Part shown: one piece after another, positions 1,987 to 5,154 of the stretch
Layout of the letters: each line of letters begins with the position of its first letter
Numbering within the stretch: the stretch's first letter is position 1
Virus record (IMG/VR): IMGVR_UViG_2606217117_000011
Strand: one strand, 5' to 3'
Source: a virus
Taxonomy: Duplodnaviria; Heunggongvirae; Uroviricota; Caudoviricetes
DNA: 5,154 bases
Notes under the pieces: generated by a model
What the model was told of the DNA's origin: nothing
Databases searched by the model: none
The model's input: only the letters and a program-made list of their open reading frames with translations
Program-made: the position numbers and the translations under genes

Positions 1987-2037
1987 TTATAAACTCCTTG
2001 CAATGTATGTCGTTTCAGCTAAACGGTATCAGCAATG

Positions 2038-2062
2038 TGAACCGCCCCGGGTTTCCTGGAGA
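2038..2062 (-). repeat. Terminal inverted repeat of the IS3-family element (orfB-distal end)
   Basis: TGAACCGCCCCGGGTTTCCTGGAGA at 2038-2062, 18 bp beyond the orfB stop (2080-2082). The extent is approximate and cannot be confirmed against the left IR, which is outside the window. Confidence 0.6.
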
Positions 2063-2079: not shown

Positions 2080-2600
<521 letters not shown>

Positions 2601-2603
2601 CCC

Positions 2604-2637
2604 GAACCGGACGTGCACCTTTCAGCGCATCCGGCTC
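2604..2637 (-). ncRNA. Group II intron domain V (catalytic hairpin)
   Basis: Minus strand GAGCCGGAUGCGCUGAAAGGUGCACGUCCGGUUC is 34 nt with the AGC triad, a GAAA-type loop and a 2-nt bulge, closely matching the domain V consensus GAGCCGUAUGCGAUGAAAGUCGCACGUACGGUUC. It starts 5 nt after the IEP stop codon. Confidence 0.88.
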
Positions 2638-2642
2638 TCCAT

Positions 2643-4166
2643 TTAAATGCTGGCGAACGCCATTGCCACTTCTGTAAAGCGCGATGTATACGTGTTTCTG
2701 GTCTCCGTCCTCAGATAGGGATTACCTTCGGGTAGCCGCCAGCGGAACAGCTTCTTGCCTTGCCCCACCAACCGGTACAGTATTTCGCCGCTGAGCTTGC
2801 CGTGATTGGTTTTACCAAATAAAACCCACGTTTTGCTCTGACCCGGTTTCGGTGATTTACACCACCACCTCATCAGGGAAGCGATACCTGTACGGTATTT
2901 GCGGGCCAGCCAGTGAGCCAGCTTCCAGAACACGACACGGTCGATATAACTGAAGACTTTGGCCTTAAAATCAACGAACTGATAGAACATGGCCCAGCCT
3001 TTCAGTTTTCGGTTGAGTTGTTCAGCCATATCGACTTTGCTTTCACTGTAGTTGCCTGATAACAGTGCTGTCAGCGATGCGGCGAAGTTTCTGGCTTTCT
3101 CCTGCGGGATCGTTGAGACCACTCGCATCTCGCCATAACGACTGCGTTTGCGAATGATCCTGTGCCCCAGAAAGATAAAGCCGTCATTAACATGGGTGAT
3201 TTTAGTCTTATCCATGTTCAGCCTGAGTTTCAGACTGCCTTCGAGCACACCCCGACACTCCTCCCTGATGGCTTCCGCCTGTGCTTTGGTGCCTTTGACG
3301 ATGAGGACAAAATCATCGGCATAGCGGCAGTACGCCACCGCGGGTTTCCACTGCCAGTTTTCTCTGACCGCCGTACTTCGGCCCCGTTGGATACTGTTAT
3401 TCCAGTACCACCGATCTTTTCTGGCTTTCCCGCTCAGGTAGCGCTCATGCAGGTATTGATCGAACTCATTCAGCATGATGTTCGATAATAGCGGCGATAT
3501 AACACCGCCCTGTGGCACACCTTCACTGGCCGCCCGAAAGAGACCGACATCGATATGTCCCGCCTTGATGGTTTTCCACAGCAGAGTCATGAAACGTGCG
3601 TCACTGATCCTGCGGCGTACAGCCTTCATCAGCAGTCGATGATGTACGGTGTCGAAGTAACTGGACAGGTCGCCTTCAATCACCCAGCGTCCCCGGGTTT
3701 CACCACAGTCTGTGAGCTGTAATTTCACCGTGCGGATCGCGTGGTGGACACTGCGCTCAGGCCGGAAGCCATATGAGAGCGTATGAAAATCACTCTCCCA
3801 TATCGGCTCCATCGCCATCAGCATGGCCCGCTGAACAATACGATCCCGCAACGCGGGGATACCCAGTGGTCGCAGTTTGCCGTTGCTTTTAGGGATGTAA
3901 ACCCGTCTGGCGGGCAAGGGCTGGTAGTGGCCTGAGAGTAATTCATCCCTGAGGATTTGCAGCTCAACAGCCAGTCTGGCCTGTAGCATTGTTTTGTTCA
4001 CGCCATCAACGCCGGGGGTATGGGCCCCCTTTGATGAAAGCGTGATCCGCGCCGCTTCAGCCAGCCATTCTGGTTGTGTTATCAGACGCAGCAGCCGTTG
4101 AATCCGTAGGGACGGATCGGTGACTGCCCATGTGGCAAGCTTGCGTTGCATTTCGCTGATTATCAA
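2643..4166 (-). CDS. Group II intron-encoded protein: reverse transcriptase/maturase (507 aa from TTG at 4166, or 502 aa from the first ATG at 4151)
   Basis: RT motifs are visible in the translation: KLRPLGIPALRDRIVQ (RT1), SYGFRPERSVHHA (RT2), GVPQGGVISPLLSNIMLNEFD (RT4), YCRYADDFVLIV (RT5 with YADD), LNMDKTKITH and GFIFLGHRI (RT6/7), followed by a maturase-like region (RNFAASLTALL...KLKGWAMFY). No Cys/His-rich HNH endonuclease block is seen at the C-terminus. Confidence 0.93.
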   Translation of the reverse strand: MIISEMQRKLATWAVTDPSLRIQRLLRLITQPEWLAEAARITLSSKGAHTPGVDGVNKTMLQARLAVELQILRDELLSGHYQPLPARRVYIPKSNGKLRPLGIPALRDRIVQRAMLMAMEPIWESDFHTLSYGFRPERSVHHAIRTVKLQLTDCGETRGRWVIEGDLSSYFDTVHHRLLMKAVRRRISDARFMTLLWKTIKAGHIDVGLFRAASEGVPQGGVISPLLSNIMLNEFDQYLHERYLSGKARKDRWYWNNSIQRGRSTAVRENWQWKPAVAYCRYADDFVLIVKGTKAQAEAIREECRGVLEGSLKLRLNMDKTKITHVNDGFIFLGHRIIRKRSRYGEMRVVSTIPQEKARNFAASLTALLSGNYSESKVDMAEQLNRKLKGWAMFYQFVDFKAKVFSYIDRVVFWKLAHWLARKYRTGIASLMRWWCKSPKPGQSKTWVLFGKTNHGKLSGEILYRLVGQGKKLFRWRLPEGNPYLRTETRNTYTSRFTEVAMAFASI

Positions 4167-4822
4167 AGGTCTTCACCTCGTTAGGTCAGTTAATTCACGT
4201 CGCAAACACATTCAAACTGCTTCCCTTCGCCATGTAATGGGCTTTCCCCATCGCGGACTACTACGGAAGCTCCGCCAGCCAGCGCGTCATCGGAGCCATG
4301 CCCCCTTAACATCCGTCGCTGACCTTCCCCGGTTTACCTGCCTGGACTCAGGCATACTGAGGAGGCTGCCCGTCGCACTCTTTATCCTTGCTTGCCGCAA
4401 GTTGGCAGAAGTCAGCAACGCAAGCGTGATAGACGCTGCTGCCCCGGTGTTTCGCATACATGTCAAAACACCTTCGACCGGCAGTGCTTACGTATCACTG
4501 CCAGTTCCTCCTGCACGGCCTGTCAGATCACGTAGGCCGTGGTGACGTTTTCAACCCACAGAGGCGGATTAACGGGTTCATGTTCTTCAGCCTTTCAGTA
4601 CTTAACCTTGAGGATCATCTCGGCTTAGTGATCTCGCCTCAATCCCCGTTGTCAGCGGGTTACATCACCCTGCGGGCATGCCGCAGGTCACTGCCGCTCA
4701 GGTTCTCCACCGTCACACCCGGTGGGATTGTTGGGTTTCTCATCGTGAGTTACCGGCTCAATATTCCAGACAGACTCGCGGTTCATTTAAGCATCCATGC
4801 CCGCCCTGAACTCCGGGCACAC
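4167..4822 (-). ncRNA. Group II intron 5' ribozyme portion (domains I-III and the 5' part of domain IV)
   Basis: Lies between the intron 5' end (GUGUG, 4818-4822 on minus) and the IEP start. Contains the EBS1-bearing hairpin CAGUG-AUACGUAAG-CACUG. The plus-strand ORFs in this interval (4120..4545, 4460..4831) have no recognisable protein features. Confidence 0.6.
4487..4492 (-). other. Putative EBS1 (5'-CGUAAG-3') in a hairpin loop of intron domain I
   Basis: Perfect Watson-Crick complement to the last 6 nt of the 5' exon (IBS1 5'-CUUACG-3', window 4823-4828 on minus). About 330 nt from the intron 5' end, flanked by the 5-bp stem CAGUG/CACUG. Confidence 0.55.
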
Positions 4823-5154
4823 CGTAAGTAAAATCAGCCACCCACAGCTGGTCAGGTCGTTCTGCCACGAACTGACGGTTTACGCGGTCGCCTGCGGCAA
4901 CGGCTTTCCGGCTGATGGTCGTACGGACCTTTTTACCCCGGAGAACACCGGCAAGTCCCATAACCGCCATGAGACGTGCCACAGTGCATCTGGCCACTCT
5001 GATACCTTCCCGTAACAACTGACGCCAGACTTTACGCACACCGTATACCTTGTGATTTTCATCGTATACGCGCTGTATCTCTTTCTTCAGCCAGTCATCG
5101 CGCTGCGCACGGGCACTGCGTTTATCCGGATGATGTCGCTGTTGCTGACAGTGG
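4823..5154 (-). CDS. IS3-family transposase OrfB, 5' exon portion (N-terminal/middle region; continues beyond the window end)
   Basis: Minus-strand frame is open from the window edge: HCQQQRHHPDKRSARAQRDDWLKKEIQRVYDENHKVYGVRKVWRQLLREGIRVARCTVARLMAVMGLAGVLRGKKVRTTISRKAVAAGDRVNRQFVAERPDQLWVADFTY, then the intron. The ORF track shows only the part from an internal GTG (4758..5039) and reads through into the intron. Confidence 0.85.

Follow-up and report, generated by a model that had tools for sequence, protein, structure and literature searches.

Lambda-type xis-ea8.5 DNA between IS2 and an intron-bearing IS629: a probable relic of prophage decay by nested mobile elements

The lambda promoter pI requires CII. 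It lies in xis and transcribes int independently of xis (PMC2951348). Transcription from pL across the ea8.5 region is N-antiterminated and processive (PMC2951348, PMC2800207), and the N-modified polymerase is processive through terminators (PMC2800207). Among the mobile elements found in prophages, IS629 has been surveyed in O157 genomes, where 62% of its sites are in prophages (PMC3271280). The element makes duplications of 3–4 bp, which were kept at 21 of 47 sites (~45%) in the O157 genomes, and it has been reported to lack a sequence-specific target (PMC3271280). Deletions adjacent to IS629 are promoted by IEE (PMC9330008). The transposase genes of IS629, IS911, ISEc16 and ISEc31 are in turn homing sites, at specific positions, of the group II intron E.c.I4 (PMC3522654).

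Here we analysed a stretch of viral DNA of 5,154 nt (from here: the window), in which lambda-type genes adjoin elements of all these kinds. The overall best explanation of its organization, to which we assign a probability of about 0.6, is a decayed relic that is bracketed by IS2 and IS629 and carries orphan genes. The segment 824–2037 is what is left of a lambda/PhiR11_1-type prophage between two IS3-family elements, and a group II intron has in turn entered the IS629 copy, at its usual homing site within orfB. The features of the window are, from left to right:

1–823, + strand: 3′ part of IS2 (orfB, ORF 21–812), with Pfam rve, rve_3 and HTH_21 matches; ends in ...GGGGCAAATCCA at 823
824–1213, − strand: int′, the 5′ part of a lambda-type int (390 nt, 130 codons), from alignment to lambda and PhiR11_1
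1191–1409, − strand: xis, intact, 72 aa (Pfam Exc, E = 4e-41), collinear with lambda 28860–29078
1422–1435, − strand: CII motif of pI, TTGC-N6-TTGC, identical to lambda and without a second match in the window; the xis ATG (1409) follows 13 nt downstream
1440–1459, − strand: terminator-like hairpin, then UUUUUUCUU, between orf55 and xis (consensus scan), conserved in lambda
1449–1616, − strand: 55-aa ORF (lambda orf55, lambdap35), collinear with lambda 29118–29285
1652–1639, − strand: weaker terminator-like hairpin (scan and fold)
1666–1687, − strand: terminator-like hairpin with U-tract, then UUUAUUUUAU, 18 nt after the ea8.5 stop (consensus scan), conserved in lambda
1705–1986, − strand: ea8.5, 93 aa (Pfam Lambda_ea8_5, PF20735, E = 1e-48), nucleotides identical to lambda
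1987–2037, − strand: remnant of the ea8.5-ea22 spacer, 51 bp, identical to lambda in the alignment
2038–2552, − strand: right end of IS629 with IRR and the C-terminal part of orfB (ORF 2080–2526), from BLAST, global alignment to IS629/IS1203 copies and Pfam
2553–4822, − strand: intact group II intron of 2270 bp, co-oriented with IS629 orfB (Rfam RF00029)
2643–4166, − strand: RT/maturase gene ltrA, 502 aa from the ATG at 4151 (Pfam RVT_1 and GIIM)
4823–5154, − strand: central part of IS629 (positions 516–847 from the IRR end), from alignment, with Pfam HTH_21 in ORF 4758–5039

Megablast against phage records aligned positions 835–2038 with lambda 28504–29707, and the junction alignments shifted the left limit to 824 (lambda 28493) and the right limit to 2037. 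The lambda-type DNA is hence collinear with lambda 28493–29706 over 1214 bp (megablast and alignment to J02459/NC_001416 and PhiR11_1), at 98.6% identity to lambda and 99.8% to Escherichia phage PhiR11_1, and alignment to this interval gave the lambda gene order ea8.5-orf55-xis-int. The matches of both the relic and IS629 have E = 0, far past chance. T2038 can be assigned to either partner, lambda T29707 being identical to the first base of the IS.

In lambda, ea8.5 occupies 29374–29655 and ea22 occupies 29847–30395, with a spacer of 191 bp between them. The break at 29706/29707 falls within this spacer, 51 bp from the ea8.5 start (ATG at window position 1986) and 140 bp from the ea22 stop. 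An initial annotation of the window had placed an IS3-family element about 50 bp upstream of ea8.5, in the ea8.5-ea22 spacer, and had called for a comparison with lambda as the way to fix the insertion point. That comparison bears out the placement and identifies the element as IS629; the predicted limits, a spacer at 1987–2037 and an IS terminus at 2038, proved exact, and the estimate of about 3.5 kb of IS plus intron agrees with 1310 + 2270 = 3580 bp, the sum for a full-length IS with its intron.

The ribosome-binding site of ea8.5, AAGGAG, is kept at 1999–1994 and is identical to that of lambda. The exact Ea8.5 protein occurs in 19,309 blocks of the assembly collection. No Pfam family matched the 55-aa ORF at 1449–1616. 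Positions 1629 and 1638 are the sole differences from both PhiR11_1 and the E. coli strain MMC-J-0105 in the 1214 bp. Both lie within the weak terminator-like element (hairpin 1652–1639) that follows ea8.5, where they read on the − strand as an extra G beside the stem and as a change from UUUUAU to UUUUUU. We considered this variant as a unique marker of the window and rejected it as such, as it is also present in four lambdoid IMG/VR contigs that are otherwise different mosaics (L027–L030). Its presence there indicates that the variant is a circulating polymorphism.

On the left, lambda int is cut by IS2 at 823/824, after codon 130 (lambda 28493). The IS2 matches in the database carry the annotation ‘IS3-like element IS2 family transposase’. 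The int′ reading frame continues into IS2 as ORF 737–1213, which retains the Arm-DNA-bind_1 domain (Pfam, E = 2e-33) and is missing the catalytic domain; an exact-protein look-up of the assembly collection returned no record of this int′-IS2 fusion ORF. The relic in the window is without attP/sib, the catalytic domain of int and anything upstream of lambda 29706. It would be unable to integrate or excise because Int is truncated. Both flanking IS3-family elements, IS2 on the left and IS629 on the right, point their right ends at the relic, so that read-through from IS2, if there is any, would run antisense to the genes of the relic (int′, xis, orf55, ea8.5).

In E. coli SCU-105 (NZ_CP051738, L015 5228–7634), a different lambdoid prophage at ybhC also has its int gene interrupted by an IS3-family element. 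Both int halves are retained there, and the IS event is separate from that of the window. IS insertions in the int gene of ybhC prophages therefore recur.

On the right, the IS629-type end TGAACCGCCCCGGGTTTCCTGGAGAG occupies 2038–2063 and starts with TG. Its right inverted repeat, IRR, TGAACCGCCCCGGG, begins at 2038; the same 14-mer stands at both ends of the complete IS629 in MMC-J-0105, and the window holds the right end only. ORF 2080–2526 on the − strand matches the integrase core and DDE transposase families rve (E = 2e-18) and rve_3 (E = 4e-12). The transposase is encoded on the − strand, as is ea8.5, so it is the right inverted repeat that adjoins lambda DNA, directly beyond the orfB stop codon at 2080. 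With the intron left out, the IS629 sequence (2038–2552 plus 4823–5154) covers 847 of 1310 bp and aligns without gaps to the complete MMC-J-0105 copy at 99.5% identity (843/847). Identity to IS1203 of E. coli PSS-12 is 95.8%, and BLAST against this uninterrupted copy matched 2038–2561 and 4823–5154. Database matches of the element are annotated as ‘IS3-like element IS629 family transposase’. The window stops inside IS629, with ~463 bp (orfA, the frameshift region and IRL) beyond 5154; the frameshift pseudoknot annotated in PSS-12 corresponds to IS positions 859–975 from the IRR end, outside the 847 bp present in the window.

The sequence that interrupts orfB matches Rfam RF00029 with 64.9 bits (threshold 40, E = 1e-11), with domains V/VI at 2553–2639 on the − strand. 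Its 5′ end, GTGTG at 4822–4818, fits the consensus GUGYG, and its removal from the alignment gives back a gapless IS629. The exact 502-aa RT/maturase is present in 10,192 blocks of the assembly collection, and composites of IS629 and the intron occur at 99.8% identity in many E. coli genomes. Neither for this protein nor for Ea8.5 did the places listed include the locus of the window. From the homing site described in the literature (PMC3522654), we infer that the intron is of the E.c.I4 type.

The initial annotation had further proposed that the IS decouples ea8.5, the 55-aa ORF and xis from pL, and that these genes depend on local promoters such as a pI-type site at 1395–1435, or on outward transcription from the IS. 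The pI site is real, with its CII motif at 1422–1435. Judged from its position, however, it cannot drive ea8.5, orf55 or xis, because pI is located inside xis (PMC2951348), with ea8.5 and orf55 upstream of it; it could transcribe the truncated int only. The decoupling itself is doubtful as well, since pL transcription is N-antiterminated and processive (PMC2951348, PMC2800207). By analogy with lambda, the 3.6-kb IS would not by itself uncouple ea8.5 from pL, and uncoupling would need loss of the pL-N module. The route to ea8.5 that had been given, through upstream genes of the b2 region, is to be corrected also, as ea22 and ea8.5 belong to the exo-xis region and not to b2.

A consensus scan of 800–2700 yielded no sigma-70 consensus promoter on either strand, and a relaxed scan of 1960–2200 gave weak candidates only. 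The best of the candidates, CTGGCA-15 bp-TAAAAT inside the IS, was rejected for its poor spacer. A hybrid IS/lambda promoter was discarded too: the junction creates TTCACA, but an acceptable −10 element is missing downstream of it. Outward −35 elements can occur at IS3-family right ends (PMC9330008), and by this analogy a weak hybrid promoter may be present at the IS right end. Between 2700 and 1987 the consensus scan found no terminator-like sites on the − strand. For the hairpins downstream of ea8.5, RNA folding gave −13.1 kcal/mol (z = −4.4) at 1687–1666 and −16.1 kcal/mol (z = −3.6) at 1459–1440; as predicted from their sequence, read-through at both would need N antitermination.

The relic genes would be transcriptional orphans, because the interval from the IS end to ea8.5 contains no sigma-70-like promoter and pI points away from ea8.5, orf55 and xis. 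The only plausible sense transcription would be weak read-through from the IS629 transposase/intron unit, which has the same direction. Outward transcription from the IS, as suggested in the initial annotation, is thus geometrically possible, being on the same strand as ea8.5, but hairpins follow ea8.5 and precede xis. Without N, this read-through would mostly end at the 1687–1666 hairpin, at the weaker one at 1652–1639, or at 1459–1440 before xis. It follows from this arrangement that ea8.5 is probably at most weakly expressed and that xis is probably silent. These considerations of transcription are based on consensus scans and on the orientation of the elements.

The junction of the window, in the orientation found there, was absent from 5,426 complete E. 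coli genomes, queried with the whole window and with both of its junctions, from plasmids and from phages, and searches with exact junction patterns did not find it in species-representative genomes, metagenome contigs or IMG/VR. Chimeric queries for an IS629 end, in either orientation, joined to the ea22-side flank found no genome. Among the 5,426 complete E. coli genomes a single related junction was present, in strain MMC-J-0105 (NZ_CM128543, L014 9189–10498). The flank-IS boundary ...CAGCAATG followed by TGAACCGCCCCGGG is at the same nucleotide in the window and in MMC-J-0105, and the IS629 isoform is the same. In the MMC-J-0105 prophage, which resides at ybhC, the IS has the opposite orientation, with IRL adjoining the lambda flank there and IRR in the window. 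It also differs in that the IS is without intron and int is intact beside attL/ybhC. At its far end the IS is fused to a truncated replication gene O; the DNA from ea22 through cII has been deleted, and there is no target duplication. The int-xis-orf55-ea8.5 DNA of the two differs at 2 of 1214 positions (1629 and 1638). The IMG/VR contig UViG_2541047946_000010 (IS at 233–1542) is 100% identical to MMC-J-0105 over 9.3 kb and was rejected as an independent case, since it has the same arrangement and lineage. In E. coli PSS-12 (NZ_AP027697, L001 6383–7692), an IS1203 copy lies 245 bp upstream of ea8.5, 194 bp beyond the site of the window, in a lambda-type prophage at ybhC. A truncated rrrD is directly next to it, which marks an adjacent deletion of the early region.

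The IS629 junction of the window is probably the edge of an IS-associated deletion or rearrangement rather than a simple insertion with ea22 beyond it; as the far IS629 end is outside the window, the two were weighed by analogy and base rates. A deletion or rearrangement implies unrelated DNA beyond IS629 and no repeat of ATG or AATG. A simple insertion of IS629 into the ea8.5-ea22 spacer, which we regard as possible but hold tentatively, implies instead that the arm from ea22 and exo to N and pL continues beyond the element after a duplication of 3–4 bp (ATG or AATG). The far side would then read (A)ATG followed by TTTATGTAAAGAAACAG..., through ea22 and exo to pL; seen from the element, the IS629 left end ...GGGGCGGTTCA would be followed by (A)ATG TTTATGTAAAGAAACAGTAAG and then by ea22. 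In that event pL transcription could still reach ea8.5 upon induction, since the IS would be no barrier to N-modified RNA polymerase. The clean IS terminus at an intergenic site is what such an insertion would leave, ~45% of the IS629 sites in O157 do keep a target duplication (PMC3271280), and the 2 differences in 1214 bp from the functional phage PhiR11_1 suggest that decay was recent. However, int has already been destroyed by IS2, so that the prophage is at least partly decayed, and both comparable IS629/IS1203 junctions near ea8.5, those of MMC-J-0105 and PSS-12, come with large adjacent deletions. Moreover, the reciprocal junction between an IS629 end and the ea22-side flank was in no genome searched.

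The boundary shared with MMC-J-0105 raises the further question whether lambda 29706/29707 is a preferred target of IS629 that was hit independently in the two copies, which we consider unlikely. The flank-IS boundary is the same in both, yet IRR adjoins it in the window and IRL in MMC-J-0105, and only 2 of the 1214 positions of the lambda flanks differ. Recombination between IS copies was rejected as a way of flipping the IS, since homologous recombination of this kind preserves each flank-to-IS-end junction and, by this reasoning, cannot turn an IS relative to its own flank. What is left are two independent hits or an insertion targeted to the end of a resident IS; in the latter variant, which shares the low probability of the former, a second IS629 would have targeted the resident IS end and the first copy would have been lost. 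IS insertions at this nucleotide would read as CGGTATCAGCAATG with a non-lambda continuation. Only two lineages are known, however, as the IMG/VR contig represents MMC-J-0105 and is not independent; IS629 has been reported without a sequence-specific target (PMC3271280), and comparison of the target with the IS629 ends by eye gave no convincing resemblance. With a similarly low probability, lambda 29706/29707 could be a recurrent IS629 target used in both orientations in separate E. coli lineages, at which inserted copies give rise to IS-mediated deletions; lambda-type prophages would thereby lose the early-left arm but keep ea8.5-xis. Finally, three repeated mobile elements within 5 kb, and an arrangement absent from every collection searched, could point to an assembly chimera of collapsed IS629 repeats. 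This is very improbable, as the break is exactly at the IS terminus, where a true IS boundary should be, and not inside the repeat, and as the same flank-IS boundary is present in an independent complete genome.

Every component of the locus is known, at 98.6–100% identity: the lambda exo-xis genes, IS2, IS629 and an IS-homing group II intron. The junction exemplifies a phenomenon already known; both prophage-borne IS629 and deletions next to IS629 are well documented. Read as a decayed relic, the locus shows in textbook form how nested mobile elements, here IS2, IS629 and the group II intron within IS629, break down a prophage. For annotation, its value is that int, xis and ea8.5 are here parts of a dead relic, so that scoring them as a prophage or a regulated exo-xis module would be an error; nor is pI to be cited as the promoter of genes upstream of it. 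That another lineage has IS629 at this very nucleotide, but in the reverse orientation, is a mild lead that hints at a local target preference.

In comparison with known systems, the element at the junction is a typical IS629 (isoforms IS1203/IS3411; IS3 family) as found in lambdoid prophages of E. coli and Shigella, with the same terminal repeat, the rve domain in orfB and a prophage location. It differs from known IS629 insertions in its flank-IS junction, which in this orientation was absent from the collections searched, with 847 of 1310 bp of the element visible. The intron resembles E.c.I4 in IS3-family transposase genes, being likewise in sense orientation in IS629 orfB and having an intact RT/maturase and domain V. 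Compared with the lambda exo-xis region and its control by pI and pL, the gene order, the coding sequences, the CII motif of pI and the hairpins are conserved at 98.6–100%, and 1.2 kb of that region survives here.
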